Below, piece after piece: positions 3,501 to 58,848 of a DNA stretch of 64,000 nucleotides. The stretch's first letter is position 1. Every line of letters starts with the position of its first letter. The position numbers and the translations under genes are program-made. Source of the DNA: Eledone cirrhosa. Lineage: Eukaryota. The DNA lies in the NCBI GenBank assembly GCA_964016885.1, contig OZ024761.1, forward strand, positions 21,452,001 to 21,516,000. Direction: 5' to 3'. A model generated the notes under the pieces. That model had not been told where the DNA came from, made no database searches, and worked only from the letters and a program-made list of their open reading frames with translations.

Positions 3501-3661
3501 CCTTCCAAACTATAACATATATATATATGTATAACATCCAGCCTAGTCCACCCTGTAAGGTGGTAGTGCCAGGGTCACAATAAAATGCTCTCAGTACACA
3601 ACCACTTTACAGTGTGAGCTGGGTGTTTTTTGTTGTGACACCTATATGACCTACTTATATG

Positions 3662-3700
<39 letters not shown>

Positions 3701-6700
3701 TATACATATAAGTGTGATGGACAGAGAGACAGAAAGCTTTTTTTATAATACAGATTTGTCGTTAATATCTTTTAAAGTTTTTAATTTCTATCTCTTCATC
3801 CATAGCCTTTGCTAACCGGTTATAGAAACAAGTCAGAATTTACAATTGGCACTAACAATGAGAGAACAGGTAAGGTCTGTTTCAGTTTTTGTCGAGAGGA
3901 CATTTTGTGTATTGGGTGTATTTATTGTGTAGAGGCTGTTATGTCATCCCCATTATTGTGTTGTCTGAGACTGTGGACTGTGGCAGTCATTACAGCCTCG
4001 GACAAAATACTTTGTAGTATTTAGTTAAGGTACCTTATGTTCTCTGTTCAAGTCCCACCAACGTCAACTGAGCCTTTCATGCTTCTGGGGTAGATACAAT
4101 ACAGTACCAGTAATGAACTGGGTTGATACAATATAGTACCAGTAATGAACTGAAGGTAGATACAATACAGTACCAGTAATAAACTGGGGTTAATACAGTA
4201 AAGTACCAGTAATGAATTGTGGTTCATACAATACAGTACCAGTAATGAACTGAAGGTAGATACAATACAGTACCAGTAATAAACTGGGGTTAATACAGTA
4301 AAGTACCAGTAATGAATTGTGGTTCATACAATACAGTACCAGTAATGAACTGAAGGTAGATACAATACAGTACCAGTAATAAACTGGGGTTAATACAGTA
4401 AAGTACCAGTAATGAATTGTGGTTCATACAATACAGTACCAGTAATGAACTGAAGGTAGATACAATACAGTACCAGTAATAAACTGGGGTTAATACAGTA
4501 AAGTACCAGTAATGAATTGTGGTTCATACAATACAGTACCAGTAATGAACTGAAGGTAGATACAATACAGTACCAGTAATAAACTGGGGTTAATACAGTA
4601 AAGTACCAGTAATGAATTGTGGTTCATACAATACAGTACCAGTAATGAACTGAAGGTAGATACAATACAGTACCAGTAATAAACTGGGGTTAATACAGTA
4701 AAGTACCAGTAATGAACTGAGGTTCATACAATACAGTACCAGTAATGAACTGAAGGTAGATACAATACAGTACCAGTAATAAACTGGAGTTAATACAGTA
4801 AAGTACCAGTAATGAACTGAGGTTCATACAATACAGTACCAGTAATGAACTGGGTTGATACAGTAAAGTACCAGTAATGAACTGAGGTTCATACAATACA
4901 GTACCAGTAATGAACTGGGTTGATACAATTCATTTTCTTCTCCCTGAAAATTGTTGGCCTTATTCCGAAATTAGAAATCGTTAGCATGGGTTAGAAAAAT
5001 TATCCTGTTGTGAGAAATGCCAGGTCAGGTGACCATGAAATGTCAGGTCATGTGACCATGCCTTGCTCACGCACAACTGGTTTTGGCTTCGTTTCTAATG
5101 TAACACTATATATATTATTGTCTATAATTTCAGAAAGAATTGTTGGATTTCGACTTGGTAGTTACCGCGATGGTTCCAGTGCTGTTGCAGAGCCGTCTCT
5201 TTGTGATATTCTTCCTGAAGCCATGAAAAGAGTTGCTCAAGTCAGTTATATACAAAATACTCCTACATATATGTATACAGCTATGTTAGAGCGAACACCT
5301 TAACCTTTTAGCATTTACATTACCCTATATATATTATTGTATTTTCACAGTAAAGGCTTTACCTCACATAATATCTCACATAACATTTACATTACCCTAT
5401 ATATACTATTGTATTTTCACAGTAAAGGCTTTACCTCACATAATATCTCACATAACATTTACATTACTCTATATATACTATTGTATTTTCATAGTAAAGG
5501 CTTTACCTCACATACCATTTACATTACTCTATATATACTATTGTATTTTCACAGTAAAGGCTTTACCTCACATAACATTTACATTACTCTATATATACTA
5601 TTGTATTTTCACAGTAAAGGCTTTACCTCACATAATATCTCACATAGCATTTACATTACTCTATATATACTATTGTATTTTCATAGTAAAGGCTTTACCT
5701 CACATAACATTTACATTACTCTATATATACTATTGTATTTTCATAGTAAAGGCTTTACCTTACATACCATTTACATTACTCTATATATACTATTGTATTG
5801 TCACAGTAAAGGCTTTACCTCACATAACATTTACATTACTCTATATATACTATTGTATTTTCATAGTAAAGGCTTTACCTTACATACCATTTACATTACT
5901 CTATATATACTATTGTATTTTCACAGTAAAGGCTTTACCTCACATAACATTTACATTACTCTATATATACTATTGTATTTTCATAGTAAAGGCTTTACCT
6001 TACATACCATTTACATTACTCTATATATACTATTGTATTGTCACAGTAAAGGCTTAATCTCACATAATACCTCACATAACATTTACATTACTCTATATAT
6101 ACTATTGTATTTTCATAGTAAAGGCTTTACCTTACATACCATTTACATTACTCTATATATACTATTGTATTGTCACAGTAAAGGCTTTACCTCACATAAT
6201 ATCTCACATAACATTTACATTACTCTATATATACTATTGTATTTTCACAGTAAAGGCTTTACCTCACATAATACCTCACATAACATTTACATTACTCTAT
6301 ATATACTATTGTATTTTCACAGTAAAGGCTTAATCTCACATAATACCTCACATAACATTTACATTACTCTATATATACTATTGTATTTTCACAGTAAAGG
6401 CTTAATCTCACATAATACCTCACATAACATTTACATTACTCTATATATACTATTGTATTTTCACAGTAAAGGCTTAATCTCACATAATACCTCACATAAC
6501 ATTTACATTACTCTATATATACTATTGTATTTTCACAGTAAAGGCTTTACCTCACACAGTATCGAATCTATGAGATTTTGATAGTATTTATTTTGAGAAC
6601 AATACCGTAACGTTGGTATAAACGGTCGGTGATGAATGAGATGGTTTGGTCATGTGTTGAGGAAGGATGAAAGTGACTGGGTGAGAGGAATAGAGCCAGT

Positions 6701-9700
6701 GATGATGAATGTTGTAAAGAGAAATGGAATAAGAACACCACCATTAGTTGCCAGGGCCTAGACTAAACCCCTACTGGTCTTTAATTTAATATTTGTTCAA
6801 ATGTTGTTTTAATCCTAAAACCGAGACAAACCCAATTTGATTTTTATTGCAGGTATTCCAAGAATATGTCCGTCAAAGTAAATACACAGTTTATGATGCC
6901 CAAACTCATGAAGGTTACTGGAGACAGCTTACTGTAAGGACCAGCACTAGAGGAGATGTGATGGCTATCATTGAGTTTCATTCCATTGAGCTACCCACTG
7001 TAAGGGCTTAATTATTTATTTTTAAATACATCTTTTGAAATTAACTGTTCAGTTGTTGTCTTCTCTTTCTTCGCCCATTTATTCCTGTGTGGATAGTGAG
7101 GGCAGAGTCCTCAAACACCCCTTCCAGCAGGTCCTGTCAGAAACAACCATCTCTCACTGATCTGGCTGGATCCCCCAAGCGACACCAACCATCTTGCTCG
7201 AGGGTCTACCCCTGGGGTCTCCTACCAATTGGTTTTGCCAGTAAAATCTGTCCAGCGACATTCTAACCACATACCCATAATATGTGGTCTCTCAATTTGG
7301 AGAAGTAGTGGCTCTACCTGGAGTGACTCTCTCATCTCCGAGCTACACACTCTATCGAGTAATGTTACTCCAAAGATCCTTCGGAGGAACACCATTTCAG
7401 ACACTTGTATTCGCGTTCGTATTCTTTCGGTCATTACCCAAGACTCATGATCATAGGTAAGGGTTTGCCACGGAAACCAAATTGAATACAGCGAGTTTGG
7501 TTTTTACGCCTTCCCCCCATCTTGTTGTTGGCTTTTGTCATTTTTTTTATGAGACTATATTTGTCGTCATGTTAAGATGGCTAATTAGTTTATAAATCTT
7601 TTCAGGAGGACCTTGAAGCAGAAAAGAATGCATTGAAAAAATTCTTTAGTGAGGGTGAAGGAAAGAAATGTGGTGTAACATCTTTATTTTTCAACTGTAT
7701 TGCCAACAGGTAAGTACTTTTGTGTGTCTGTTTACCTGGCTTCCCTCTCACTCTACTTTGTCTATTTCCTATCTTAATTAAGTCTGGCCCATCAATTAAT
7801 TTTTGAGAAAATGTCAATTTTGCATTTATCACATCATCATTTAATGTCCATTTTTCCATGATAGCATGGGTTAGACGAGTTGTCCCATTGTGCGACAAGC
7901 CAGATCAGATGACCCTGTCTTGCCCATACTGAACTGTTTCTGGCTTTTTATATGTAGAAATACAGAAAGAAGGATTCTTCATTAATTAATTAAAATAGAG
8001 TATATTTCATTAGAAATACAGTCATGAAAAGGTTATTGTAAAGCAGTTATGGTGCTGTTTTGTATTGTCAAGAAAATATCTAGTTGTGTGTTTGTTAATT
8101 CAAATATTTGTCATATCTTTACTACTGAACAGATTAATGTGAAAATTTGCAGTATTAGAGTAAAGTCTTCAATTTTTAATGTAAAACAGCCATAATGTTG
8201 TTTTGTATTTTTTAAAGAATATCTTGTAAATGTGGTTTTATGTGGTACAGGACATTAAAAGTTAGATATAGGTTTTTTTTAAAAATAATTGCTGTAATTT
8301 TTTATCTTATTTCAATTTCTCCAAATTCAGTTTTCACCTTAGTTATTATTTATTTGTTTAATTTTACAGACAATCAAGTTGCAGGCAGTCTGCTAATTAT
8401 GAACATTTGATGGGCAATGAGGTTAGAGAAGTATTTTTTTTTAATCCTTTAGTTACCAACCTGGCCAAAATTGGCTCTGGTTCTATGAAATAAAACCATC
8501 CATTTTAAAAGTTTCCAATTTAAATTAAAATCTGCCAATATAATTTTACATAAGAACCCTACATTAAGTTACTATCTTAGTAATGAAATAATTGATAATT
8601 TTAGTAAATCCCTCAAAATTCTTCATTAATTAATTAAAATAATGTGTATTTCATTAGAAATGCTGAATTCTCTCAACTCTTTCTGTTCAAATTGGCCGTA
8701 ACTGGCTGCTCATCCAACATTAAGGTGTTGTTCTCAAAATAAATCATAAAAATCTCCTAGATTCGATATTATGTGAGGTAAAGCCATTTCGGTGAAAATA
8801 CAATAGTATATATAGAGTAATGTAAATGTTATGTGAGGTAAAGCCTTTACTGTGAAAATACAATAGTATATATAGAGTAATGTAAATGTTATGTGAGGTA
8901 AAGCCTTTACTGTGAAAATACAATAGTATATATAGAGTAATGTAAATGTTATGTGAGGTATTATGTGAGGTAAAGCCTTTACTGTGAAAATACAATAGTA
9001 TATATAGAGTAATGTAAATGTTATGCGAGAAATTATGTGAGGTAAAGCCTTTACTGTGAAAATACAATAGTATATATAGAGTAATGTAAATGTTATGTGA
9101 GATATTATGTGAGGTAAAGCCTTTACTGTGAAAATACAATAGTATATATAGAGTAATGTAAATGTTATGTGAGGTAAAGCCTTTACTGTGAAAATACAAT
9201 AGTATATATAGAGTAATGTAAATGTTATGTGAGGTAAAGCCAATAATAGTAAATATAGAGTAATGTAACTGCTAAAGGGTTAATGTCTTTCAGTTCAGTT
9301 TTAGTTGCTCTTTATTATCTGTATTTTATTTTATATTTCTCTTTTTTTTGTATCTTTCAGTGGATCACTGAAGACTTGTTAGGTCTGAGTTTCCAAATCT
9401 CTCCTGATGCTTTTTTTCAAAGTAAGTCATTCATTTGGATAAAAATATATTTCATATATCATCATCATCATATCCCTACTACTACCATCATTATCACTAC
9501 CATTATCACCACCGACATCATCAACCAGAAACATTTGTCTGTCATAAGCAAAATTTTAAAAAAAAGAAATTTTTTAATTTAATATATAAATATTTTTTTC
9601 AAATAAACAAAATCCGATACGTTTTCCTTCTAACTCTGACAATATATTTGTCAGAAATTATTGAAGAAACATATATTTTATGTTTTGGTGGTGAGAGCTG

Positions 9701-12700
9701 ACCTCAGAGGAGATGAAAAAGGACCATGACAAATGGAGAGATGTTGTGCTGAAAAGGACTTGTCCCACCCTCGCTAGCAAGGAAAAGCAAACATAAAATA
9801 ATGATGATAATGGTGGTGGTGATGATGATAAAGACTTCTGTGACATTACTACAATATGTTTTGGTAGAGACTTCTGTGACATTACTACAATATGTTTTGG
9901 TAGAGACTTCTGACATTACTACAATATGTTTTGGTAGAGATTGACATTACTACAATATGTTTTGGTAGAGACTTCTGTGACATTACTACAATATGTTTTG
10001 GTAGAGACTTCTGACATTACTACAATATGTTTTGGTAGAGACTTCTGACATTACTACAATATGTTTTGGTAGAGACTTCTGACATTACTACAATATGTTT
10101 TGGTAGAGACTTCTGACATTACTACAATATGTTTTGGTAGAGACTTCTGACATTACTACAATATGTTTTGGTAGAGACTTCTGACATTACTACAATATGT
10201 TTTGGTAGAGACTTCTGACATTACTACAATATGTTTTGGTAGAGACTTCTGACATTACTACAATATGTTTTGGTAGAGACTTCTGACATTACTACAATAT
10301 GTTTTGGTAGAGACTTCTGACATTACTACAATATGTTTTGGTAGAGACTTCTGACATTACTACAATATGTTTTGGTAGAGACTTCTGACATTACTACAAT
10401 ATGTTTTGGTAGAGACTTCTGACATTACTACAATATGTTTTGGTAGAGACTTCTGACATTACTACAATATGTTTTGGTAGAGACTTCTGACATTACTACA
10501 ATATGTTTTGGTAGAGACTTCTGACATTACTACAATATGTTTTGGTAGAGACTTCTGACATTACTACAATATGTTTTGGTAGAGACTTCTGACATTACTA
10601 CAATATGTTTTGGTAGAGACTTCTGACATTACTACAATATGTTTTGGTAGAGACTTCTGACATTACTACAATATGTTTTGGTAGAGACTTCTGACATTAC
10701 TACAATATGTTTTGGTAGAGACTTCTGACATTACTACAATATGTTTTGGTAGAGACTTCTGACATTACTACAATATGTTTTGGTAGAGACTTCTGACATT
10801 ACTACAATATGTTTTGGTAGAGACTTCTGACATTACTACAATATGTTTTGGTAGAGACTTCTGACATTACTACAATATGTTTTGGTAGAGACTTCTGACA
10901 TTACTACAATATGTTTTGGTAGAGACTTCTGACATTACTACAATATGTTTTGGTAGAGACTTCTGACATTACTACAGTATGTTTTGGTAGAGACTTCTGA
11001 CATTACTACAGTATGTTTTGGTAGAGACTTCTGACATTTCTACAATTTCTTTCTTTACAGTCAATAATCCAGCCACTGCTTTACTTTATTCCCTGGTTGC
11101 TGATTGGTGTCAACTTGATAAAGACAGTGTTGTCCTTGATATCTGTTGTGGTACAGGTACCATTGGTCTTACTCTAGCCAAGGTTTGCAACATATTTTCA
11201 TCTTTCTCATTTGCCTTCTTTGTTTTGTTTTAGTTTTTATTTTCTTTAAAAGAACAATTTAAAAAATCACACAAAGTCCTACCCATATGGTGGAATGGTG
11301 CTGCAACAAAACAAAGCAACCAGTCCACTCTGTATGATGGTATGGTGCAAGGGACTTGACAAAAAAGCACCCAGTCCACTCTGTAAGATGGTTGTGTTGA
11401 TGATATCACTAGACTGGTACTTTTTATATATATATATATATGGAAGTGAGAAAGAGATATAGAGTAGAGAAAGAATCAACCCAAGTACTTGACTGGTACT
11501 TTTTTATTGACCTCGAAAGGATGAAAGGTAAAGTTGACCTCTGCAGGATTTGAAGTCAGAACCAAATACTGCAAAGCGTTCTATCCAATGTTCTAACAAC
11601 ACATTTAATGTCGAGTAATTATCTTACATTTGTCTTTCAGCATGTGAAAAGGGTTTTGGGTGTTGAGATTTGTTCTGCTGCCATTGAAGATGCTAAGAAG
11701 AATGCTTCACTAAATGGTAAGATTTTCTCAGTCTTATTCGAATGTGCGTGAACGACCAAGCATAGATGAGTTGAGAGAGAAACTGTGTATAAGAGGGATA
11801 AGTTGTATAGTGTGCAGGAGAGAAGACTGAGATGGTATGGACATATGATGCGCAAGGGTTGGACAGGTCTACATAGACCAAGTCATTACTGAAGTGGTTT
11901 CATGCAGTACAGGACATGAAATTATGTTTCTCATTTGGTATTTATCCCAAGTTTTTATAACTTTGATAACGTGATATATATATCTTATATTTCAGGTGTA
12001 AAGAACATTGAGTTTTACTGTTCCAAGGCTGAAGATGCATCTGAGAAAATGAGGGGATATTCAAGGGGTCAGAAAGCTGTAGCTGTTGTTGACCCTCCAA
12101 GACCTGGACTCCGTCAGTAATTCTTATTTAGTTATTTCTATATTGAGGTAGAGAGTGAGATGGTGTTGTGAAATCTGTGATAGTATCCATTGTGAAATGT
12201 GTGTGGTAGAGGTTCTATTTTTATATTGGGTGAGAGGGTGGTATAGAATTTTACCCATGCTAGCATGGAAGAACGGACGTAAAACGGTGATGATGATGAT
12301 GATCCACTGTGAAATGTGTGTGGTAGGGTGAGCGGATGCTATAAAATCTGTGATGTATAGTACCCACCTTTAACTATCATCGCAACCATCCACTTCTCTG
12401 TTGATACACAGTACCCACCTTAAACAGCATCAGTTTGTTAACATCGGTGGTTTCAAGGTTGTATCATTTACAGGGTTATTTAGCTTTAACTTAATGTAGA
12501 AATACAAATACTTTGGTCTCTTTTTCAACCATGTGATGTATTTAATTAATTTACAGAATCCAAAGTGATGTATGCCCTTCGTCGCTGCAACTTTATCCAG
12601 CGTGTCATCTACATTTCATGTAACCCTGCTGCTGCCATTCAAAATTTCACTGAGTAAGTAATAGATTCTGAGCTTGTGACCATCTCTCAGCTAAACTTTG

Positions 12701-13550
12701 CTTTCTATAAATATATGTCTGTTTATCCATAGTATTGTTTTGTACTAAATGTTTATAGTATCTTTACTGGTGGACAGATTGTTGTGAAAATTTACAGTAT
12801 TACAGTAAAGACTTTAATATTTAATGTGATGTAGTTGTAGTAAATGTTTATAGTATCTATGAAAAACTAATTTCTTCTTTTCACAGCTTAATGCGGCCAA
12901 AGTCACGGAGAAATACAGGAGAACCGTTTTTTGCTGTGAAAGCTGTTCCCGTTGACCTTTTCCCACACACCAAACACTGTGAACTTGTTGTAATGTTTGA
13001 GAGAAAACAGGAAGCAGAGACAGACACTAAACCAGAGACTGATTCTAAACCAGAGATCGTCTGTAAAGAGGAGACTGACTCTAAACCAGAGATCGTCTGT
13101 AAAGAGGAGACTGACTCTAAACCAGAGATCATCTGTAAAGAGGAGACTGACTCTAAACCAGAGACAGTCAGTAAACCAGAGATCGTCTGTAAAGAGGAGA
13201 CTGACTCTAAACCAGAGATCATCTGTAAAGAGGAGACTGACTCTAAACCAGAGATCGTCTGTAAAGAGGAGACTGACTCTAAACCAGAGATCGTCTGTAA
13301 AGAGGAGACTGACTCTAAACCAGAGATCGTCTGTAAAGAGGAGACTGACTCTAAACCAGAGAACGTCTGTAAAGAGGAGACTGACTCTAAACCAGAGATC
13401 ATCTGTAAAGAGGAGACTGACTCTAAACCAGAGACAGTCAGTAAACCAGAGATCGTCTGTAAAGAGGAGACTGACTCTAAATCAGAGACAGACGGTAAAA
13501 AACTAGAGAAAGTCTGTGAACCAGAGGTGGTTTGTAAACTAGAGGACTGA
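524..13550 (+). CDS. TRMT2A: tRNA (uracil-5-)-methyltransferase homolog A (TrmA/Trm2 family), 5'-partial; 16 exons in window
   Basis: Exons 524-572, 950-1037, 1983-2037, 2708-2802, 3350-3398, 3806-3869, 5134-5240, 6853-6999, 7606-7709, 8370-8421, 9361-9421, 11061-11182, 11641-11716, 11996-12112, 12557-12653, 12887-13550. All introns are GT-AG and phases join into one 648-aa frame ending TGA. Motifs [51 protein letters not shown] are all intact. AATAAA near 13572. N-terminus/RRM presumably upstream of the window. Confidence 0.95.
2150..2575. repeat. ~37-bp minisatellite
   Basis: CACTGACACAAGCATCACAACACAACACTACTAGAAT, ~11 copies. Confidence 0.9.
4090..4930. repeat. SINE-internal satellite with 100-bp higher-order period (3 x ~33 bp)
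   Basis: GGTTCATACAATACAGTACC recurs at 4221, 4321, 4421, 4521, 4621, 4721. Confidence 0.9.
5303..6560. repeat. MITE-derived 60/72-bp minisatellite
   Basis: ACATTTACATTACTCTATATATACTATTGTATTTTCACAGTAAAGGCTTTACCTCACATA. Same unit at 8770-9270 (inverted), 30415-30705, 45640-45893. Confidence 0.92.
7075..7470 (-). mobile_element. RTE-clade (Expander-like) LINE 3' fragment
   Basis: HESWVMTERIRTRIQVSEMVFLRRI.GVTLLDRV.SSEMRESLQVEPLLLQIER; decayed. Confidence 0.75.
9833..11045. repeat. 34-bp homogeneous minisatellite (~35 copies)
   Basis: GTAGAGACTTCTGACATTACTACAATATGTTTTG; abuts the acceptor at 11059-11060. Confidence 0.95.
13020..13490 (+). repeat. Coding minisatellite, 36-bp unit (KPEIVCKEETDS) x11 in TRMT2A last exon
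   Basis: Seen directly in ORF 12891-13550; two 18-bp KPETVS spacers. Confidence 0.95.
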
Positions 13551-17781: not shown

Positions 17782-17839
17782 TTAAACTTTAAAATTTCTC
17801 TCTATCTCTTTCTCCCTGATTCTATTTTAGACTTCTGTA

Positions 17840-20800
17840 ATGGAGGCTGGTAACAACAACAGCAACAATAACAATGTAAGTAATTCAGTTTATATATTTG
17901 TTGGGGGGAGCGGGTTGAGGAAAGTATTATGACAGTTGTATGATTTTTTCACTTGCACATTTTCTTTGGTATGTGTTTCAAGATAAAATACACCCAGTAC
18001 ACTCTGTAAAATGGTAGTGTTGGTGTCATGATATAATACACCCAGTACACTGTTGAATGGTAGTGCTGGTGCCACAATACAATACACCCAGTCCACTCTG
18101 TAAAGTGGCAGTGCTGGTGCCACAATAAAATACACCCAGTCCACTCTGTAAAGTGGCAGTGCTGGTGCCACAATAAAATACACCCAGTACACTCTGTAAA
18201 GTGGCAGTGCTGGTGCCACAATAAAATACACCCAGTCCACTCTGTAAAGTGGCAGTGCTGGTGCCACAATAAAATACACCCAGTCCACTCTGTAAAGTGG
18301 TAGTGCTGGTGCCACAATAAAATACACCCAGTCCACTCTGTAAAGTGGCAGTGCTGGTGCCACAATAAAATACACCCAGTCCACTCTGTAAAGTGGCAGT
18401 GCTGGTGCCACAATAAAATACACCCAGTCCACTCTGTAAAGTGGTAGTGCTGGTGCCACAATAAAATACACCCAGTCCACTCTGTAAAGTGGCAGTGCTG
18501 GTGCCACAATAAAATACACCCAGTACACTCTGTAAAGTGGTAGTGCTGGTGCCACAATAAAATACACCCAGTCCACTCTGTAAAGTGGCAGTGCTGGTGC
18601 CACAATAAAATACACCCAGTACACTCTGTAAAGTGGTAGTGCTGGTGCCACAATAAAATACACCCAGTCCACTCTGTAAAGTGGCAGTGCTGGTGCCACA
18701 ATAAAATACACCCAGTCCACTCTGTAAAGTGGTAGTGCTGGTGCCACAATAAAATACACCCAGTCCACTCTGTAAAGTGGCAGTGCTGGTGCCACAATAA
18801 AATACACCCAGTACACTCACTCAAGTGGTAGTGTTGGTGTCACAATATAATACACCAAGTACACTCTGTACACCTTGTAAAGTGCTCCAGCATGGCCACA
18901 ATAAAGCCCATTCAATAGAGTGAAGGAATGTATAGAATGGAGATAAGGCCCCTTCTGTTTATCTGAGTAGTGTATGTCCTGTGTTAGGGGTCAGTAACAT
19001 TGATTATTTACTGACTAATTCTATGACAACCTGTCCTAACCCTTGATAGAGGGGGGAGAAAGGACAAAGTGAGGATGATGTGTATCATTGGTAGAAAAAG
19101 ATGGACAACAGATTAAATGTTTTAAGCGGACCATATCCGGCCAGAACTGTCTCACCTCCTGTTCAAACCAGCTGTAACTGGCCACTCATACCTATGTTAA
19201 GATATTGTTCTCGAAATAAATAACATCAAAATCTCATAGATTCGATATTATGTAAGATAAAGCCTTTACCATGAAAATACAATAGTAAATATAGAATAAT
19301 GTAAATGCTAAAGGGTTAATATACAGGTAAAATTCCATTATACCGTATTTTTTAGTATAATGACATTTTTTTCAACCCCCGGCCACATGCTCGATGTGTT
19401 TCGGTCTATCTCATTATAAAGAAATGTTATCCAACCATCTTGCTCAGGGTTTACCCTTGGGTCTCCTGCCGGTTGGTTTTGCCTGCAACCCCCTTCACGG
19501 GTTTTATTCCTCCTCCACAAATTTGTAACTTTGAATCATATAAGAATATTTTTATTTCTATTTTCTTTTATTAGACATCTGATGAAAGCCTCGAGTCCAT
19601 TGTTGCTAAACGTAAAGATGCCCCAGGTAAAATATTTTCTAATATTTTCTGTATATATAGAGTAAAATTGAATGCTAAAGAGTTAAAGTTGGTATGAGCG
19701 GCCAGTTGTACAGAAAGAGGTGAGTTCTGGCCAGATTTGGCCAGTTTAAATGCCAAAGGGTTAAACCTTGTCAATATTTTCCTGCAGGATCATCTCAAGA
19801 TCTCCCTGAGACCAAAAAATCTAAAATATCAACAGAAAGTTCAGCCACAGATAGTATATCAGCCGGTGAGAAGTAAGTGGTGTCACCTGTTTTTATTTGT
19901 TTGTAGTCCACACTATATAGTGGTCATGTAGGTGTCACGACAAAAGTACCCCTGTCCACACTATATAGTGGTCATGTAGGTGTCACGACAAAAGTACCCC
20001 TGTCCACACTATATAGTGGTCATGTAGGTGTCACGACAAAAGTACCTCTGTCCACACTATATAGTGGTCATGTAGGTGTCACGACAAAAGTACCCCTGTC
20101 CGCACTATATAGTGGTCATGTAGGTGTCACAACAAAAGTATCCCTGCACGCACTGTAAATGTGGTTAACTTTAGGTAGCGCCTTTGTTCTGTGTATAGAT
20201 ATAAATAAATTATATCATCATCATCATCATCATCGTTTAACGTCTATCTTCCATGCTAGCATGGGTGAGACGGGAATTGTCCCATTTGAGGTAAGATTGG
20301 TTGGGTGACCGTATCTCGCTTGTATCATCATCATCATCATGTATATATATATATATATATATGCTCACATGGAGAAATGGTTGTTAAATGTTGATGATTA
20401 TATATATATAGTATAAAGAAAGTTTCATACACTTAGCATTATAGTATAGAATGTACAGTATATATTGTATTGAAGATACATAGTATATCTAGTGTTCTAG
20501 ATAGAATATATAGTATGATATGATAGTCTACATAGAATATATAGTATGATATAGTAGTCTAGATAGTACATATAGTAACATATGGTAGTCTATATATATA
20601 TATAGTATGATATAAGTGCTTTAGAAGATTCTATCCACACCACCATCATCATCTAACAAATAAACATCTAACACAATTTTTATTAAATTGTTTATGTTTT
20701 TGTATATTTTCTCTTAGGGTTAAACGAGCCTTGCTGCCATTTTGTGATGTACCATATGAAGAACAGCTCAAGGTAGATAGAACCTGCTTTATTTGTTTTC

Positions 20801-23800
20801 TTTCTTTTGGCTTAGTGGTTAGGGTGTTGGTCTCACAACTAGAGGTTGTCAGTTGGATCCTTGGGCTGAGCTGAAAAAAAAAATAAGACATGGCTTCGTG
20901 TCACAACAATAAAGGGCACCCAGTCCACTCTGTAAAGTGGTTGTCTTGGTGTCATGATAAAGCACCTAGTCCACTCTGTAAAGTGGTTGTCTTGGTGTCA
21001 TGATAAAGCACCTAGTCCACTCTGTAAAGTGGTTGTCTTGGTGTCATGATAAAGCACCCAGTTCACTCTGTAAAGTGGTTGTGTTGATGCCATGACAATA
21101 AAAAGCACCCAGTCCACTCTGTAAAGTGGTCATGTTGGTGTCATGACAAAAAGCACCCCGTCCACACTGTAAAGTGGTTGTCTTGGTGTCATGACAATAA
21201 AGCACCCAGCCCACTCTGTAAAGTGCTTATCTTGGTGCCGTGATAAAGGGCTCCCAGTCCACTCTGTAAATGCGAAATATGAGGCTATGAAGGAACACAA
21301 CAACTAGGGAGATGCTGTACTGAAGAGGACCTGTGTATTGTTTTTATTTTCAACCTAAATATAGTTGAAATGCTTACTTTGTTTATTTTCAGCGCAAAGC
21401 TTCTGACATCAGAGATGCCATGGTGAAGTTTAGCTGGGAAATCCACCGCACTTGCCCAAAATGGAGGAACTGGCTCAAGGAACAAATGGAAGAACACTCT
21501 GGAGTCCTTTGCAAGATTGAACAGATAAGGCCTTCCCCTGTGTTGAACGGCTACCGCAATAAATCTGAATTCACCATCGCTAGCAGTTCTAACGGTACTC
21601 AAGAAAGAATAGTCGGCTTCCGAGTTGGTAGTTACCGCGATGGCTCCAGTGTGGTTGGCGAGCCCTATGCCTGTGACAACCTGCCAGACTCCATGAAGCT
21701 CATAGCTAAAGTATTTCAACAGTATGTCCGCCAGAGCAAGTATGACGTCTACAATGACCAGACACATGATGGCCATTGGCGGCAGCTGATTGTTCGGACA
21801 TCCAGCCAAAACGACATCATGATCATTCCCGTCTTTTACGCTCAGTTTCTCTCAGACGTAAGTAACTTCATTCCTTTCTTTCTTATTCTTCTCCTTTCTC
21901 TCCTTCTTATTCTCAGACGTAAGTAACTTCATTCCTTTCTTTCTTATTCTTCTCCTTTCTCTCCTTCTTATTCTCAGACGTAAGTAACTTCATTCCTTTC
22001 TTTCTTATTCTTCTCCATTCTCTTCTTATTCTCAGATGTAAGTAGCTTCATTCATTCATTTCTTATTCTTCTCTCCTTCTCCATCGTCTCTTTTGTCTCC
22101 TTCTTCAAATCCTTCTTCTTCCTTTCCTTCTCCTTCATCTCCTTATTCTCTTCCTTCTCCTTCTTCAAACCCTTCTCCTTCATCTCCTTGTTCTCTGCCT
22201 TCTTCATCTCCTTCATCTTATTCTCCTCCTTCTTCTAACCCTTCTCCTTCATCTCCTTATTCTCTCCTTCTTCAAACCCTTCTCCTTCATCTCCTTGTTC
22301 TCTGCCTTCTTCATCTCCTTATTCTTCTTCTCCTCCTTATTTTTCTTCTTAATCTCCTTCTTCGTCCCCTTATTCTTCTTCTTCTCCTCCGTCTATCCCT
22401 CCCTCTATCCACTCTATAACTACCCTCATCTTCATTGTTCTGTCAAGTAGAAGGTGAAATATTTAACAAAGTTTCCTTTCTTGTTAATTCCAGGAAGAAG
22501 TCAACGAAGAGAAAGATGTAATGACTGAGTATTTTTCTGTTGGAGATGGCGTTCAGTGTTCTGTCACGTCACTCTACTTCAGGTGTTTGAGTAACAGGTA
22601 GCTATACTGTCTTTCTTATCTACCTGTAACATATCTTACACACCTGACTGGATAATTACTGTTATTTGTTTGTTTGTTACAGTTGTCCCCATGTCTCTCC
22701 TGTCCCCACCTTCTCTCTTGACCCCAGCTTCTTCCCAACTGCTAAAAGCATCCAAGGTCCCTTTCTCTAAGAATTCCACCAGCCCACCACCCCAGGAGAC
22801 TGTTGCATTATTTCATCACCCTCCCTTTCTCTAAGAAATCTACCAGTCCACTACCCCAGGCGACTGTTGCATTATTTCATCACCCTCCCTTTCTCTAAGA
22901 AATCCACCAGTCCACTACCCCAGGCGACTACTATTTTATCTCCCATTTTACTAACAAACCCAGCCATCTACAGTGTCGTATTAATGTGGTTTCATATGGT
23001 TTGTTAATTCAAATGTTTATAGTATCTTTACTGGTGGATAGATTGTTGTGAGAAACAGTAAAGACTTTAATATTTAATGTGATGTAGTCATAGTGTTGTT
23101 TTGTACTAAATGTTTATAGTATCTTTACTAGTAGACAGATTGTTGTGGACATTTACAGTATTACAGTAAAGACTTTAATATTTAATGTGATGTAGTCATA
23201 GTGTTGTTTTGTACTAAATGTTTATAGTATCTTTACTAGTAGACAGATTGTTGTGGACATTTACAGTATTACAGTAAAGACTTTAATATTTAATGTGATG
23301 TAGTCTTAGTGTTGTTTTATACTTTTCAGTGTCTTGTTAATGTGGTTTCATGTGGTATAGGACGTTAAGAGTTAAAAGAATATAAGACTAGCTTCTAGTT
23401 TTTAAATATTTCACCTTCATTTTCTATTTCTCTCTAAATATATTTTATATTCTTTCTCGTTGTAGACTAGGAAGTTGTAGACAACACGCAGTCAATGAGC
23501 ATTTATGGGGTAAGAAGGTAAAATGATTTTGTTTCTATTTTTTTTCTCAACCTCTGGCTTATTTGTACAATTATTCTTGACACAAGCCATTTTAAACTAA
23601 TCATCGTCCATTTTCCCTGCTAGCAAGGATTGGGTGGGTTGTCACAGAACAAGTTCGTACTTCATCGGAGCTACTGATTTCTCAGAAGGTCTGGGACCTC
23701 ATCTCACACATATATATGTTTCCAAACTCTACAGAATGTGCCGTGCATGATAGCACCAGAACTAGGGAGGTTGTCATGTTCTTAACACAACTGAAGAGCC

Positions 23801-25763
23801 CTTGATCCTTTTTGGGGGCAAGGTTTCTACAGCTGGATGCTCTTCCTATCATCAACCACCTTACATGGTGTACTGGGTGCTTTTTGTTGTGTTACCAACA
23901 TTAGTGAGATTGTGCAATTGACACAACTGTACAATCCTCTCGATCCTTTTTTTAGCAAGATTTCTACAACTGGATGTCTTTCGAATCACCAGCCTTCTTT
24001 ACAGAGTGAACTGGGTGTTCTAGAGAGATTGTTATGTCCTTAACACAACTGAAGGGTCCTTCCATGATAACCCTTTTGATACAAAGCTGCCAGAAACCAC
24101 CTCAGATTATGCGATATAAAACTGTTTGTATTACTTTCAAGGTTGATAAACTTTAATAAATCTTTGTTTTATTTCTGTTTCAGTGGATCACAGAAGTATT
24201 GTTAGAGCTCAGCTTCCATATCTACCCTGAGACTTTCTTCTCATGTAAGTGTCCAGTTTATAATAATAATAATAATGAAATTATTGTGTACAGTGCTCAG
24301 GTGCACTACAACTCATCAACATAGAATATATACAAATGTCAGGGAAGTGAATAGAGAATAGAGTCATGATATACATGTGTATGGAGGGAGGATACCAGGT
24401 GTAGTGTTGGCGAATCTCGGGAAGCATGGAGGTTTTAAAGGATGCAGTGTCTCGACAGCTAACAACTGATGCAGGTAGTTTGTTCCGTGGAGGTTTTAAA
24501 GGATGCAGTGTCTCGACAACTAACAACTGATGCAGGTAGTTTGTTCCATGGAGGTTTTAAAGGATGCAGTATCTCGACAGCTAACAACTGATGCAGGGAG
24601 TTTGTTCCATGGAGATTTTAAAGGATGCAGTGTCTCGACAGCTAACAACTGATGCAGGTAGTTTGTTCCATGGACGTTTTAAAGGATGCAGTGTCTCGAC
24701 AGCTATCAACTGATGCAGGTAGTTTGTTCCGTGGAGGTTTTAAAGGATGCAGTGTCTCGACAGCTAACAACTGATGCAGGTAGTTTGTTCCGTGGAGGTT
24801 TTAAAGGATGCAGTGTCTCGAGAGCTAACAACTGATGCAGGTAGTTTGTTCCATGGAGGTTTTAAAGGATGCAGTATCTCGACAGCTAACAACTGATGCA
24901 GGTAGTTTGTTCCGTGGAGGTTTTAAAGGATGCAGTGTCTCGACAGCTAACAACTGATGCAGGTAGTTTGTTCCATGGACGTTTTAAAGGATGCAGTGTC
25001 TCGACAGCTATCAACTGATGCAGGTAGTTTGTTCCATGGAGGTTTTAAAGGATGCAGTGTCTCGACAGCTAACAACTGATGCAGGTAGTTTGTTCCATGG
25101 AGGTTTTAAAGGATGCAGTGTCTCGACAACTAACAACTGATGCAGGTAGTTTGTTCCATGCTTCAGCAACTCTGAACATGAAAAAATATTTCCGAAGGTC
25201 ATGGGAGCTGTGCTGTTTTCTGACTTTGTTGGCATGCCTGCGTGTGATAGACACATGCAATTCAAAAAGGTGCTCAGGGTTGTTGGCAAGATGGTTAATA
25301 ATTTTGTGGGTGTTTACCAAGTCCTCATTAGGGCCTGATCTTAGAGCTTAGGATGCCTGGGGCACTTCTAATTTGGGGGAAACCCCTCATGCATAAAAAA
25401 TTAGAATACACAGCAAACTCCCCAATTTTACATATCAAAGTTAGCTTGGTGCAAGTAATTGGAATTGAAAAATTATACTTCATACAGGTATTAAATTATT
25501 AAATTAAATGGCCCTGGTCGTCACTGACCATTACTATTCAATATTTTCATACTATCTGTAGCCATGTCTACAGTCTATTGTAATAAATTATCTTATTCTG
25601 AGCTGATATAAACTTTTTCACCTACACCTTCCCTTTTATATTTGAAAAACGAATTTCTTTATGTATATATATATATGTATGTATATATATATATGTATAT
25701 GTATATATATATATATGTGTATATGTATATATATATATGTATATATATATGTATATATATATG

Positions 25764-25794
<31 letters not shown>

Positions 25795-25941
25795 GTATAT
25801 ATATATGTATATATATATGTATATATATATGTATATATATATGTATATATATATGTGTATATATATGTGTATATATATGTGTATATATATGTGTATATAT
25901 ATGTGTATATATATGTATATATATATGTATATATATATGTA

Positions 25942-26006
<65 letters not shown>

Positions 26007-26015
26007 GTATATATG

Positions 26016-26073
<58 letters not shown>

Positions 26074-28903
26074 TGTGTGTTTTCTGAAGCATAACATTCT
26101 TTTTTAACTCCCGATTTTCTACCTGATGTCTAGGACACTAACAACAGTTATGTATCTACCTGAATGTTCTGAAGACTAGGATTTTAATCACCTGTTTAAA
26201 CATTCCCTTTGCTCCAATGATTCCAGACTTCCTTCTGGAAGAAACAATTGTCAGCAAATAAATGTATTAAAAATAAGATTTGATTATTGTTTTAATATTT
26301 TATATATATATATATGTATATATAACGAAGGAAATGTGGCAAGGAACCAGATGGACCATAACGCACCAAAGTACTCAATACTTAGGGTAGTAGAGTGGGT
26401 AATAGGAACAAGTAGGACCCCGACGGCTGAGCGTTCAGCTATTCATTTACCAGGATAAATATTTTCATTTAATCCAGAATTAGCCGTCGAAACGGCTTGA
26501 GCTCAGCCGTCGGGGTCCTACTTGTTCCTATATATATATAAATAAATATATATATCCGCAGCCGACGCGAAGGGCTAGTTTCGGTTATTTGTTGGAAATT
26601 TCTTCATAGAAGCCTTATTCTTATAGCCTGGTCTATTCGATTTTTTATATGGTTAATTATGCTAATTGGGAGAGGAAAGGGTATATATTTTATCTGGTGA
26701 TTCTATAGACATGTTTTATGATTATATATATATATATAGATATATATGTGGATATATATCCATATATATACCCTTTCTAACTAATTGGTGATTAAAGTAT
26801 GACAATTTCTTTGTGTTTCAGTTAACAACCCCGCTGCATCACTCCTCTACACTATGCTGGGTGACCTATGTCTTGAAGAGCCAAATAACATAGTCTTTAA
26901 TATCTGCTGCAGTACTGGAACCGTGGCCCTCAGTCTTGCTAAGGTTAGCTCTTATCTTCTTAGAGTTGTGTCAGCTTCACAGGTTTTTGTCACATTTATG
27001 ACATACATAGCACACACACACATCATCATTTTACGTCCGCTTTTCCCTGCTTGCAAGGGTGGGACGGGTCCTATTCAGCACAGCATCTCTCCACTTGTCA
27101 CGGTCCTTCGTCATCTCCTCCATGAATTTCAGCAATCTGGGGTCTGCTTTCACCACCTCAACCCATGTTTTTCGTGGTCTTCCTCTACACACGTATATAT
27201 ATATATATATGTAAAGGGTAAACAGAAATAACAACACAATCGGTACAGTATATGGAAAGAATATATTAGTTTAATGCTTGAAATAGCAGGAAGAAGGTCT
27301 TAACGTTTCGAATGCTAGTCCTTCATCAGAAGAAAGAATGAGAGAGAAATTAAAGAAGAAATAGCAGGATTGAGATGGGCAAGGTGGGATTGGAAAATAA
27401 ATTTTAAGAGAAAAATAACAGGTCCATTCATGTTGCCATGTATGTATATATAATTGTTTCTACTTTTGGCACAAGGCCAGCAATTACCAAGTACATTACT
27501 GGTACTTTATTTTTCAACCCCATAAGGATGAAAGGAAAAGTTAACCTCGGGCCATTATATATATATATATAATGGTCCGAGGTTAACATGGCTTAGTGGT
27601 TAGAGCATTGGGCTTGCAATCGAAAGGTTGTGAGTTCAATTCTCAGACCGGGTGATGTGTTGTTTCCTTGAGCAAGACACTTCATTTCACATTGCTCCAG
27701 TTTACTCAGCTGTAGAAATGAGATGATAGGGACTGAGGTCCCTATCATTCCACTGCAAAGTGGTCGTGGAGGTGCCACAGCAAAAAAGCAGCCAGCACTC
27801 ACTGTAAATGAGGTTGGTGTTAGGAAGGGCATCCAGCTGTAGAAATCAAGCCAAAATCAGTTCCCGTCCCACCCTTGTAAACAGGGAAAAGCGGACGTAA
27901 AATGATGATATATATATATAGTAGAACAGTGGAGGGTTATATCCGTAGTAGTAGAGCACTCAGGACATGGGACGAGTTTGGTAGAAGTGGTTCCACAACA
28001 GTTCACCATGTTCTCGGTATGGTGAACTGTTGTGGAACTACTTCTATATATATATATCTCATCATCGTTTTCCATGCTCACATAGGTTGGTCTGGTCTTA
28101 TCCAGCACCGCTGTCCTCCATATGTTGCCTATGTTTGTCCTCTTGTCTGTAAGTCTTCCTAGGGTTTGCTCTCCGTTAGTAATTTCCTTCTTCATATATT
28201 TTCTATTACAGCGAGTGAAGAGTGTTGTTGCTGTTGATATGTGGGCTGCCAACATCGAGGAAGCCAAGAAGAATGCTGAACTAAACAGTATGTATCATAA
28301 CCACCATTAACATCACCATCTTCACCACCATCATCATCATCATTATGGCTTGACATTTATTTTCCAAGCTTTCATGAGTTAGACTGCTGTCATATGAGAA
28401 ATCAGTTAGGTGACAAGGTTGTGCTTGTATATATTGTGTTAGCTTGGTTTTTACAGCTTGTGGAGCCTGGTTTCTGTTAGTGGTCGTGCTGGGGTCTAGC
28501 ATTTCACTGCTGGAAGGAGTTGGGGTCATGGTGAGGCCTGGTTTCTATTGGTAGCTTATCTGATATCCTTCCTCTATCTACACAAGTTATTCATAGCTGC
28601 CCCTCCCTACTCTTTTCCTGCTTGTTATCTGTTGACCCCTGTTTTTATCTATTTCCCTCCAGATGTGACTAATGTCACCTTCTACCATGCCAAAGCTGAC
28701 GAGGTCATTGACCATCTTGACCGCTGGCTGAAGGGCCAAAGTGCTGTTGCTGTTTTAGACTCCCCTTGTGCTGTGATGCGTAAGTCTTTGTATTTCTTTG
28801 TTGTTGTTTAACTGTTTGCTATGGGAGCCTGTACACGGTCATCGGATTCGATGTATAAAATACACATACTTATATGTATACAGCTATGTTGGAATGAACA
28901 GCT

Positions 28904-28940
<37 letters not shown>

Positions 28941-30876
28941 TGTGTATCTGTGATAATCCTTTAGCATTTACATTTCCACAGTAAAGGCTTTATCTCACAA
29001 AATATCGAATCTAAGAGATTTTGACATTTATTTATTTTGAGAACAATACGTTAATGTCAGTATGAGTGGCCAGTTACAGCTGGTTTGAACAGAAAGAGGT
29101 GAGAGACTGGCCAGATATGGCTGGTTTAAATGCTACAGGGTTAAACAAGCCAACTCGATATTGTGGGATGTGTGTTAACCCTTTAACATTTAAACCAACC
29201 ATAATTCTCTCAGCTCTGTTTAAACCGGTTGCTCATACTGATGTTAAAGTATTTTTCTCAAAATAAATAATATCAAAATTTCATAGATTCGATATTATGT
29301 TAGGTAAAGCCTTTACCATGTAAATATAATGTAAATGCTAAAAGGTTAATCCTGTCTTCTGTTCTCTCGTGGGATGTGTGCATTAGTCCTATTGTCCAGT
29401 TCTACTTCTGTGTCACAGTAACCACAGATATTCAATAATTTCCTCTTTGTCTTTACAGAAAGTAAAGTGATATATGCTCTCCGGCGTTGCCACTTCATCC
29501 ATAGGGTTATCTACATCTCGTGTAACCCAGTTGCTGCCATTCAGAACTTCACTGAGTAAGTCTAGAACTTTCAATAGTTATTTACTGCCTCACCTTATCC
29601 GACTTAAAATAATTTTTTTTTACTTATAGTTTTCATGACTAAATTTCTCATCCTGTGATTTTCAAATATTTTGAAAAAGGATTTAATAGTATAACTAACT
29701 GATGTTTGGAACATAACTTAAAGATTCTTACATAAAATTATGATAGAAGGTTTTCAGATAAACACTTTAAGACAAAGTTGTGTATCAAAAGGTTAACATA
29801 GAAGGACCCTTCAGTTGTGTCAAAGACATGACAACCTTCCTAGTGTTGGTGACATAAAACACACCCTGTACACTCTGTAAAACGGTCAGTGATAGGAAGG
29901 ACAACCTGCTGTAGAAACCTTGCCTAAAAGGGTTGACAGGACCCTTCAGTTGTGTTAAAGACACAATTAGCACCCTAGTGCTGATGCCATGGTTACAGAT
30001 AGAGAAATGCAGTGCAGAGTGTGGGAACATATATAAATAAAATGGGTGTTGAGAGGTCAGAGGTTAGTGTTTCTAATTAAGTCCTGGGCAGTGAGAAAAT
30101 GGACATTAAATGACGAGGATTTTCAAACTTGATACAGAGACTTTTGTGTTTTCTTCTTATTTCAGTTTGATGAAACAAAAATCACAGACGATGAAAGGAA
30201 AGGCGTTCTACCCTGTAAAAGCTGTTCCTGTTGATCTGTCACCCCATACAAAGCTCTGTGTGATGGTTGTCATGTTTAAGAGAAAACGTAAGTTTAAACA
30301 CCATTTCTTAACCCTTTAGTATTTAATCCAGCCAGAATTTTTCTCACCTCTTTCTGTTCAAACCAGCCACTCATACTGATGTTAAGGTGTTATTCTCAAA
30401 ATAAATAATATTAGTACATATAGAGTAATGTAAATGTTATGTGAGGTAAAGCCTTTACTGTGAAAATACAATAGTATATATAGAGTGAGGTAAAGCCTTT
30501 ACTGGGAAAATACAATAGTATATATAAAGTAATGTAAATGTTATATGAGGTAAAGCCTTTACCATGTAAATACAATAGTATATATAGAGTAATGTAAATG
30601 TTATGTGAGATAAAGCCTTTACTGTGAAAATACAGTAGTATATAGAGAGTAATGTAAATGATATGTGAGGTAAAGCCTTTACCATAGTATATATAGAGCA
30701 ATGTAAATGCTTAAAGAGTTAAACTCAGCTGAAATAAATACCACAAAGTATTCTGACTTTCTACATTCTGCTAATTTGCCACCTTTTATAGAATTATATT
30801 ATATATATAAACAATAAAATTAATTTTTTATATATTTTCCATTATTCTAGGTTTCCGTACAGACATGATGTGCTAA
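17840..30876 (+). CDS. TRMT2A-like tandem paralog with degenerate catalytic motifs (~489 aa, 14 coding exons)
   Basis: Exons 17840(ATG)-17875, 19575-19626, 19788-19872, 20718-20772, 21393-21857, 22494-22597, 23466-23517, 24184-24244, 26822-26943, 28212-28287, 28663-28779, 29459-29555, 30166-30287, 30851-30876. Exon lengths 55/104/52/61/122/76/117/97 match the upstream copy exactly. No stops or frameshifts. First and last exons are less certain (unspliced end would be 30319). Confidence 0.9.
17985..18870. repeat. 48-bp minisatellite (~18 copies) related to SINE family C internal sequence
   Basis: ATAAAATACACCCAGTCCACTCTGTAAAGTGGCAGTGCTGGTGCCACA. Related arrays at 19900-20160, 20915-21270, 51920-52105, 56615-56910. 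Confidence 0.92.
24262..25325 (-). mobile_element. CR1-like LINE 3' end with internal 61-bp tandem array (x12, 24428-25160)
   Basis: TRRHANKV...[21 protein letters not shown]...ASFK; simple-repeat tail at ~24262-24277; 61-bp period read directly. Confidence 0.75.
25660..26078. repeat. (TA)n/(TATG)n microsatellite (others at 32930-34045, 34365-34610, 45150-45375, 63575-63845)
   Basis: Direct inspection. Confidence 0.95.
27298..27333 (-). ncRNA. Minimal (Penelope-type) hammerhead motif
   Basis: Minus strand TCTT-CTGATGA-AGGACTAGCATTC-GAAAC-GTT-AAGA: 4-bp stem I, loopless palindromic ACGT stem III. Decayed copy on + at ~59376-59410. Confidence 0.5.
27585..27725 (+). mobile_element. tRNA-derived SINE family B (reference copy)
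   Basis: A box TGGCTTAGTGGTTAGAGC, B box GAGTTCAATTC, core CCTTGAGCAAGACACTT...TTGCTCCAG. Copies on - at ~1350-1482, 44998-45130, 56070-56190, 56205-56320. Confidence 0.8.
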
Positions 30877-34077: not shown

Positions 34078-34344
34078 CTAGCTGGGCAGGTCGTCAACTT
34101 TGGTGTCATCAGCAACATCGTTATTATCTTCTTCGTTATTGTCATTGTTATTATCTACCTCATCCTCCTCCTTTTCCTTCTCTTCTCCCTTCTCTCCCTT
34201 CTCCTCCCCCTCTTCTTCCTCTTCCTCCTTCTCACACGTCAGAGCTGACAGCCTCGTCTCAAGATTTTCAATACGTTTATCCAACTTCTCTACGGTTGTG
34301 GTCAACATCTTCACCTCATCCATTAACTGTTTCGGATCAAAGTT
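34078..34344 (-). CDS. Coronin distal alternative terminal exon (second coiled coil plus acidic tail)
   Basis: Poly-T tract + CAG acceptor, phase 0. Encodes [14 protein letters not shown]...[10 protein letters not shown]...[12 protein letters not shown]...DDLPS*, aligning with proximal terminal exon [14 protein letters not shown]...[10 protein letters not shown]. Confidence 0.8.
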
Positions 34345-35779
34345 CTGACAAAAAAAAAAAGAATATATATATTATATATTATATTATATATTATATTTAT
34401 AATATATTATATATTATATTATACATATATATTATATATTATATTATACATATATTATATATTATATTATACATATATTATATATAGTTAACATTAAACG
34501 AGAAACAAAGTTTGTTTATCAAATTTAATCTGTACATATAAAATATTTATGAATATAAATATATATACATATAAATATATATTTATATAAATATATATTC
34601 ATATATATATATAAGCAGAAGGGATATTTAATTTGTTGTTAATTCAACAAATATAAATGTTTATAACTGATTAAGAGAACTAGACAGATGGCACAAGGCC
34701 AGCAATCACCCAGTGTATTACTGGTACTTTATTTTATCGACCCCGTAAGGATGAAAGGCAAAGTTAACCTAGGCGGGATTTGAACTCAGATTGGCAAGAG
34801 CCGTAACTCTATGCATCAAAGCATGGCGTCCAACCCTCTACCGATACTGCCAATTCACTGCCCTTAATAATAATAATAATGATTTCATTTATTAGCCACA
34901 AGGGCCGACATGTAGGGGACAATAAGGTCGAGTAAAGTGCACAATGGCAAGACTAATTTAACAATGAAAATATAAAAATATAAAATAAAATAATAATGAA
35001 CTTGTGTAAAGTGCTCAGGTGCACTACAACTCATCAATATAGTTAGTACACAAGTGAATAGTGTGTATATATCAATCTTTCCAATTGCTAATATTATCTA
35101 TCCAGCCAAAAGGAGCAATGTGAAATAAAGTGTCTTGCTCAAGGACATATCCATTACCACCACTAATACTACTATCACTACTACTAGTAGAACCCTGAAA
35201 ATTGTGCTTTAATTTCTATATTTTTTCATCCAATCTTAGGAATAAGTCATGACAGAGTTATCGTTCTTAACTTTTAGGGTAAGAAAATCGTAGGTATCTG
35301 ATGTCGCTTCTATATACAAATAGATAATCGTGGGGCATGCTGGGAGAATCGATGTATCAATTTTTTTTTCTTTATGGAGGCCTTTTTAATATATTTTGAA
35401 TAAATGTGAGGCCCGAAGTTTATTACTATCAAGAAACACATGCGTATATATACACTCACAGACACATAAACATACATGGAAAGAAACACACACGTAAATA
35501 CACGCGCGCAAATATATATATGTGTGTGTATGTGAGAGAGAGTGTGTGTGTTTATGTGAGAGAGAGGGAGAGAGCGTGTGTGTGTGTATGTGAGAGAGAG
35601 AGAGTGTGTGTGTTTATGTGAGAGAGAGGGAGAGAGTGTGTATGTTTCGTCTGCTTTCAACCAATACTTAAATCAATAACTATAGCGCCCAAAGTTTATT
35701 ACTGTCAAACAGACTCACGCGCATATACATACATACGCACCTAAGGGCGGGGAAGCCATTAGAGCTGGTTGAGGACTTC

Positions 35780-58725: not shown

Positions 58726-58848
58726 CTGTTAAAGAGAAAGAAAAAGAAACAAAAAAAAAAAAACATTATAAATAAAGCTGCTGACTTAGGAAGCATTGGG
58801 AGAATTTGAAAATTTGTTATGTTGCCTAACATAAACAGTATAATATAT

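Follow-up and report, generated by a model that had tools for sequence, protein, structure and literature searches.

The window, by which we mean the whole stretch of 64,000 nucleotides of Eledone cirrhosa DNA that was analysed, holds two tandem TRMT2A genes, both on the plus strand (Table 1). Their exon sets were built from splice sites, and the spliced frames of both copies are open to the stop. Copy A has 16 exons inside the window, while its RRM exons lie upstream of it. In the alignment of the two proteins, ten introns have the same column and phase in A and B, the two that flank the fifth exon of copy B among them, and the four introns of copy A that lie between those flanks (a to d, all of them GT-AG) are absent in copy B, among 14 alignable positions.

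The 465-nt exon of copy B matches five exons of copy A (95+49+64+107+147), and the former junctions fall after 21487 (a), after 21536 (b), at about 21600-21603 (c) and after 21710 (d). An earlier, sequence-only reading of this DNA had described this correspondence, with one extra codon near the third junction and with shared flanking introns; the alignment of A and B confirmed both points, the flanks agreeing in column and phase, and all the coordinates that it gave, for the four introns of A and the 465-nt exon of B, hold, as do its lengths for the five exons of A. Its description of the case as clean stands for junctions a, b and d, which are fused without indels, but not for c, where the extra codon lies in a length-variable loop, so that the precision of the fusion is shown for three of the four junctions. 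This loop has 13 residues in B versus 12 in A, in the non-duplicated cephalopod protein P0003 and in the named bivalves; among 113 matched sequences (from 186 proteins) a length of 12 residues is found in 61, of 11 in 40 and of 13 in 7. Because its length varies, the extra codon may be the product of later slippage. In the B protein of Argonauta (P0002) the same loop has 19 residues, six more than in Octopus B, which is either a real insertion or an artefact of the gene model.

The splicing of the five exons in copy A is predicted from the open frame and from orthologous proteins (83% identity to O. sinensis A). An O. sinensis isoform (P0004) lacks exactly the residues of the 147-nt exon, which supports an exon boundary of the A type. 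No Pfam family was found that covers the fused exon alone.

Table 1. Coordinates, within the window, of the two TRMT2A copies and of the exons and introns compared between them
Feature	Position	Strand	Remarks
TRMT2A copy A	524..13550 (window start to ~13,550)	+	canonical active site; repeat-coded C-terminal tail
TRMT2A copy B	17831..30876	+	14 coding exons, product of ~490 aa; lacks an RRM; active site degenerate
Fused exon 5 of copy B	21393..21857	+	465 nt; frame 0 open; preceded by AG and followed by GT
B intron upstream of fused exon, kept	20773..21392	+	matches A intron 2038-2707 in position and phase (0); bounds the event on its 5' side; same position in L022, L007
B intron downstream of fused exon, kept	21858..22493	+	matches A intron 7000-7605 in position and phase (0); bounds the event on its 3' side; same position in L045, L022
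Copy A exon, 95 nt (first of five)	2708..2802	+	
Copy A intron a, phase 2, absent in B	2803..3349	+	putatively ancestral, from protein breakpoints only
Copy A exon, 49 nt	3350..3398	+	
Copy A intron b, phase 0, absent in B	3399..3805	+	present in L045 and L022 DNA
Copy A exon, 64 nt	3806..3869	+	homologous 64-nt exon L022:4302-4365
Copy A intron c, phase 1, absent in B	3870..5133	+	seen in L022 DNA and implied by P0323 and further ORFs; L045 lacks it
Copy A exon, 107 nt	5134..5240	+	
Copy A intron d, phase 0, absent in B	5241..6852	+	in L045 and L007 DNA
Copy A exon, 147 nt	6853..6999	+	homologous 147-nt exon L045:687-833; skipped in O. sinensis isoform P0004

Around the fused exon and elsewhere in the window, further features were observed. 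The last 8 nt of the exon, its donor site and about 50 nt of the intron are tandemly repeated (21850-22081; period 61, 3.8 copies), which creates three decoy donors; the first donor is the one used in the spliced contig described below. Copy B has an extra 3' intron (30288-30850), just before the stop, that is absent in A; the B orthologues end in matching residues, and the difference may be a loss in A or a gain in B. The last exon of copy A (13012-13550) encodes a long acidic tail of tandem repeats with a period of 18/36 nt, and the tails of O. sinensis and Argonauta A are made of repeats that differ from these. A further gene, on the minus strand (~34078-58728), has an exon for WD40 (58450-58728) and, at its end, a weak match to Trimer_CC (34081-34371); it resembles a coronin.

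Integrity of the fused exon and age of the duplicate

The fused exon is genuine and no artefact of assembly. Two sequencing runs (X1 and X2), from one sample whose type is unrecorded and which is possibly the assembly's own source, yield one 716-nt contig each that spans 21270-21879, that is, upstream intron and the entire exon, with 0 and 1 mismatches. The depth of these contigs, 5.2 in X1 and 9.2 in X2, compares with 4.2-4.9 and 6.9-8.3 for neighbouring unique pieces and corresponds to a single copy. A third run, X4, taken as RNA solely from its spliced contig and of unrecorded tissue, gives a contig of 2098 nt in which the fused exon is unbroken and the next three GT..AG joints are spliced; copy B is, therefore, expressed. 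In X5, a RAD-seq run, depth over the fused exon is zero. Position 21656, within the exon, shows a T/C difference in the DNA-like run X2 and also in X4, which marks it as an allele and not as RNA editing.

These data bear on the idea that the exon arose by mis-assembly, by transcript-guided gap filling or as an inserted retrocopy. It is possible that the DNA contigs derive from the sample used for the assembly, and they reach only 22 nt beyond the donor site, which would leave such an idea some room; it is nevertheless already contradicted by DNA contigs of single-copy depth that each contain both intron and exon. In addition, the exon is in frame and has introns at ancestral positions on either side, a second copy of it was not found within the window, and an identical read-through occurs in an ORF of another Octopus, so that the probability of an artefact is practically negligible. 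The notion that copy B as a whole is a processed retrocopy or retrogene was rejected, given its 13 introns in the coding region, 10 of them at the positions of A, and its place as the tandem neighbour of A.

The ORF just mentioned (P0046, from Logan) is 96% identical to the B protein of O. bimaculoides and reads through all four junctions, a to d, and then into the downstream intron. This indicates that the fused exon is common to another Octopus, and the event predates the split of this octopod from at least one Octopus species. Orthologues of copy B are found in O. bimaculoides (P0001), to which the copy B of the window is 88% identical, O. sinensis (P0031), O. vulgaris (P0033) and Argonauta hians (P0002). 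The accessions of A and B are adjacent, on equal-sized contigs, in O. sinensis, O. vulgaris and Argonauta, and this adjacency in three octopods means that the tandem pair is old. The fused exon can also be used as a phylogenetic marker for octopods.

In a tree of 23 proteins, the duplication falls after the single cephalopod-like protein P0003 (A+B 94/92, unstarred), the B stem is long (1.07 changes per column) and the branches within B are short. In AU tests on the core alignment, the p-AU values are 0.885, 0.174 and 0.052, which reject none of the alternatives; the topology that joins A with P0003, which would imply an older duplication, corresponds to 0.174 and is not rejected. When the alignment is divided, the stem shared by A and B measures 0.163 outside the fused exon and ~0 inside it, and AU rejects no alternative topology in either part. 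Much of the A+B signal is carried by a 97-nt exon, without which bp-RELL support is 0.51. This exon, which encodes the catalytic Cys (12557-12653 in A, 29459-29555 in B), shows 88% amino-acid identity between A and B, a likeness that may reflect an old gene conversion or strong constraint.

Intron positions in outgroups

The direction of the change was examined in metagenome DNA, where a scan returned 266 relatives; the best 80 of them, in a ranking that favoured intron-poor loci, were all BLAST-screened, and six loci (L007, L013, L022, L025, L027 and L045) were examined in detail. Two other scans, of genome_contigs (11 pattern matches) and viral_contigs (87 pattern matches), contained 0 relatives each. 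Locus L045, which is closest to bivalve proteins, has exons at 287-460 (174 nt, from b to d, with no c), at 687-833 and at 2315-2418 (104 nt), followed by one of 46 nt, and both of its downstream junctions are as in copy A. In L022, whose best matches are animal proteins, an exon at 3551-3688 (138 nt) runs from the 5' flank to b with no a; the 64-nt exon that follows extends from b to c, and an exon at 4438-4691 (254 nt) continues from c to the 3' flank with no d. In L007 the 5' flank and d are present, and a, b and c are absent. The remaining three loci (L013, L025 and L027) have introns at positions other than a to d, and in vertebrate-like ORFs the boundaries also differ from these. Introns b, c and d are, then, found in outgroup DNA at the same positions and phases as in copy A (b in L045 and L022, c in L022, d in L045 and L007), and they are ancestral. 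The patchy presence of all four introns, with L045 lacking c, L022 lacking a and d, and L007 lacking a, b and c, implies that these introns have been lost independently in other lineages too.

Short ORFs add a second kind of evidence, which was counted among the 120 matches listed of 239. Among them, 52 of the 69 ORFs that reach d run on into Val and then unrelated residues, as expected of a GT donor, and a start of the b type is seen in 16 of 113 testable ORFs. One ORF, P0323, starts at c and ends at d; 31 of its 36 residues are identical to P0003, versus 23-28 of 36 to A or B. Four others (P0300, P0303, P0326 and P0318) likewise break at the codon of c. As for intron a, P0069 parts from P0345, a full-length member of its cluster, exactly at the codon of a, and the sea star Patiria (P0244 versus P0234), the pseudoscorpion Cordylochernes (P0049) and P0225, P0226, P0231 and P0359 break at the same codon; the residues at these breakpoints fit a phase-2 acceptor. 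Intron a was not seen in the outgroup DNA examined, nor in any mollusc outside the octopods, and its ancestral status is suggested by the protein breakpoints.

The alternative, in which some or all four introns were gained in copy A, could draw on the absence of a from outgroup DNA, on the lack of c in L045 and on the A+P0003 topology, which was not rejected (p-AU 0.174). For b, c and d it is refuted by distant outgroups, whose DNA has introns at the same positions and in the same phases, and for a it is opposed by the fit to breakpoints in the sea star, the pseudoscorpion and other animals, which makes a gain very improbable. Loss in B rather than gain in A, the direction that the sequence-only reading had favoured, is supported, for b, c and d by DNA and for a by protein breakpoints only. 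The intron-rich tandem neighbour and the great age of the intron positions make this direction unusually clear.

Copy B as a candidate pseudo-enzyme

According to passages of PMC10484741, in human TRMT2A residue Q411 binds uridine, C538 is the nucleophile and E581 the base, and D510 is also among the residues named; the behaviour of E581A is consistent with RNA being trapped irreversibly, and TrmA of E. coli has a chaperone role independent of methylation. The human numbering maps exactly onto the dog protein P0218, by which the octopod proteins can be read. The B orthologues P0001, P0002 and P0033 match PF05958 (tRNA_U5-meth_tr) with scores of 45.9-47.2 bits against a cut-off of 23, and the equivalents of K242, F409, D510 and the nucleophile C538 are kept in all five aligned B rows. 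In these same five rows Q411 is replaced by Ser and E581 by Val, and the SAM-binding motif I and the DPPR motif are altered. Among 186 long proteins searched by pattern, the Glu equivalent to E581 is kept in 162 of 172 and the Gln equivalent to Q411 in 160 of 169. RRM_1 scores above the cut-off in P0039, P0040 and P0003, and gives no match up to E 0.1 in the B orthologues P0001, P0002 and P0033; no RRM exons lie between copies A and B in the window. The active-site exons of copy B are those at 24184-24244, 26822-26943, 28663-28779 and 30166-30287.

Copy B thus resembles the m5U54 methyltransferases of the TRMT2A/TrmA type in its match to PF05958, in C538 and D510 and in ten intron positions of A, and differs from them in having no RRM and in the changes at Q411, E581, motif I and DPPR. 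The absence of the RRM and the changes at the equivalents of Q411 and E581 point to a likely pseudo-enzyme, and copy B is predicted from its residues to be catalytically impaired. Outside the fused exon, B is 86-91% identical to its orthologues and A 83-86% to its own, and a copy as conserved among its orthologues as A is under constraint. A fuller picture can be proposed, in which copy B would be an octopod-specific, RRM-less pseudo-enzyme held by purifying selection since before the split of Argonauta and Octopus, which, with the catalytic base lost and the nucleophilic cysteine retained, would act as a tRNA chaperone or RNA trap in place of a methyltransferase, and whose exon would be a mark inherited from the RNA-templated repair of a break in the germline of an invertebrate; as a whole this picture is speculative and rather doubtful.

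Copy B is nonetheless the larger lead at this locus: it is a conserved, expressed duplicate with natural changes at residues that are mutated to kill or trap human TRMT2A, and it would offer a natural test of the methylation-independent tRNA-chaperone role proposed for the family. No paper in the literature searched, which left most subscription journals outside, treats octopus and TRMT2A together. A divergent TRMT2A-like protein without the equivalent of E581 was also observed in Timema stick insects (P0064, P0356-P0358; also P0122), and it is possibly an independent pseudo-enzyme.

Mechanism of the intron loss and known systems

It is probable that a single RNA-templated replacement erased introns a to d of copy B together. 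A spliced transcript, probably that of B itself or of the young duplicate, would have served as template in one germline event and replaced 220-465 nt of spliced sequence in mid-gene, with the ends of the tract inside the former 95-nt and 147-nt exons. From the adjacency of the introns we infer the single event, and from established knowledge of such blocks the RNA template; the donor is likewise a deduced part of the scheme. The four missing introns are consecutive among the 14 alignable ones, for which the chance is 11/1001 = 0.011 if losses are independent, a value that is post hoc and concerns one gene. The same fused state is seen in this genome and in P0046.

The block shows no 3' bias, given that the part of the gene downstream of it has nine introns, a coding sequence of 777 nt and, by the X4 contig, at least ~1.55 kb of spliced RNA, although such a bias is, in passages of PMC2395259 and PMC3296678, a tendency and not a strict requirement. 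With nine introns and about 1.55 kb of spliced RNA 3' of the tract, a cDNA primed at the poly(A) would have converted only its far end. The route may have been either cDNA conversion or local RNA-templated break repair, which fit equally well and between which the sequence cannot choose. The claim of the sequence-only reading, recombination with a reverse-transcribed mRNA, survives in part: RNA-mediated loss is the best mechanism, from adjacency, whereas conversion by cDNA is inseparable from RNA-templated break repair. For internal blocks, what is to be expected genome-wide under poly(A)-primed conversion differs from what is expected under RNA-templated break repair; a single old case cannot separate the two.

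That reading had also proposed to date the event and to name the donor from dS inside versus outside the fused exon. The comparison was run: fourfold sites of A and B match in 10 of 32 cases inside the exon and in 23 of 62 outside it, which means that synonymous sites are saturated and that both dating and identification of the donor fail. At the protein level, A and B are identical at 86 of 154 positions inside and 150 of 274 outside (p = 0.84), and a late conversion from the mRNA of A is not supported, since the two copies are no closer inside the fused exon than outside it (0.55 both). The GC3 of copy B (88/154 inside, 129/274 outside) does not differ significantly (p = 0.056).

Two other courses of events have been weighed against a single replacement. 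The loss may have been stepwise, through two or more events such as single-intron cDNA conversions or deletions by end-joining or microhomology, with c perhaps removed imprecisely; the extra codon lies exactly at c, which may have been lost imprecisely or separately, the long B stem (1.07) leaves time for several events, and the same introns have been lost piecemeal in other lineages. Microhomology-mediated loss has, moreover, been argued for metazoans, a published counter-view (PMC3698931), and c and d have 3 and 2 nt of junction microhomology in present-day A. The values for the lost introns (0, 0, 3 and 2 for a to d) show no pattern against the 0-4 of the kept ones, a and b having none; a, b and d are exactly fused and the ten other shared introns are all kept, and piecemeal loss is on balance unlikely. 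A different proposal, made for internal losses in passages of PMC2395259, is that a poly(A)-primed cDNA removed a to d together with all the downstream introns, and that an intact allele or copy A then restored the 3' introns. It agrees with the location of the A+B signal outside the fused exon (stem of 0.163 versus ~0), much of it in one 97-nt exon, but there is no direct trace of such a restoration, A-B identity is equal in the two parts, and the AU tests reject no alternative topology in either. Restoration, which would in any case be a variant of RNA-mediated loss and not a separate class, is quite improbable, and the single RNA-templated replacement is the reading retained here.

Losses of adjacent introns beyond chance have been described in rat, Drosophila and Cryptococcus (passages of PMC3652778, PMC3296678 and PMC2395259), and those attributed to mRNA include rat Cyld (7), Apex2 (4) and Chmp4bl1 (4) and mouse Mfap1b (passages of PMC3652778). 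Copy B resembles these rodent cases in that consecutive introns are gone from an expressed gene at its own locus while others are kept; it differs from them in being a cephalopod tandem duplicate with an internal block and nine downstream introns kept, in being too old for dS dating and in having one junction with an extra codon. The sequence-only reading had regarded an internal block as uncommon, which does not hold, since internal loss is well described: in the passages of PMC2395259 and PMC3296678 it predominates in Cryptococcus, and Drosophila has an internal pair, in GK24430 of D. willistoni. As in these systems, in copy B internal adjacent introns are lost and those at the 5' and 3' sides are kept; unlike them, the introns are larger (0.4-1.6 kb in A) and a neighbouring paralog is available as a possible recombination partner. 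Self-priming and recombination between an intact allele and one with 3' loss are the routes to internal loss proposed in passages of PMC2395259. An exon-definition limit (passages of PMC2614967) was considered as a constraint on an internal exon of 465 nt and set aside, as copy B splices it in X4.

Repair of double-strand breaks templated by RNA produces consecutive deletions of whole introns in human cells and tumours, in a manner dependent on Pol zeta and independent of LINE-1 (passages of PMC12065846). It resembles the case of copy B in that it yields precise deletions of consecutive introns and does not depend on poly(A) priming; the process is known from human cells and tumours, and the passages of PMC12065846 leave its evolutionary role open. 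LINEs competent for retrotransposition are described in Octopus (PMC9115989). By its testable features, the block of copy B belongs to concerted mRNA-mediated intron loss, of which it is a further example and not a new class.
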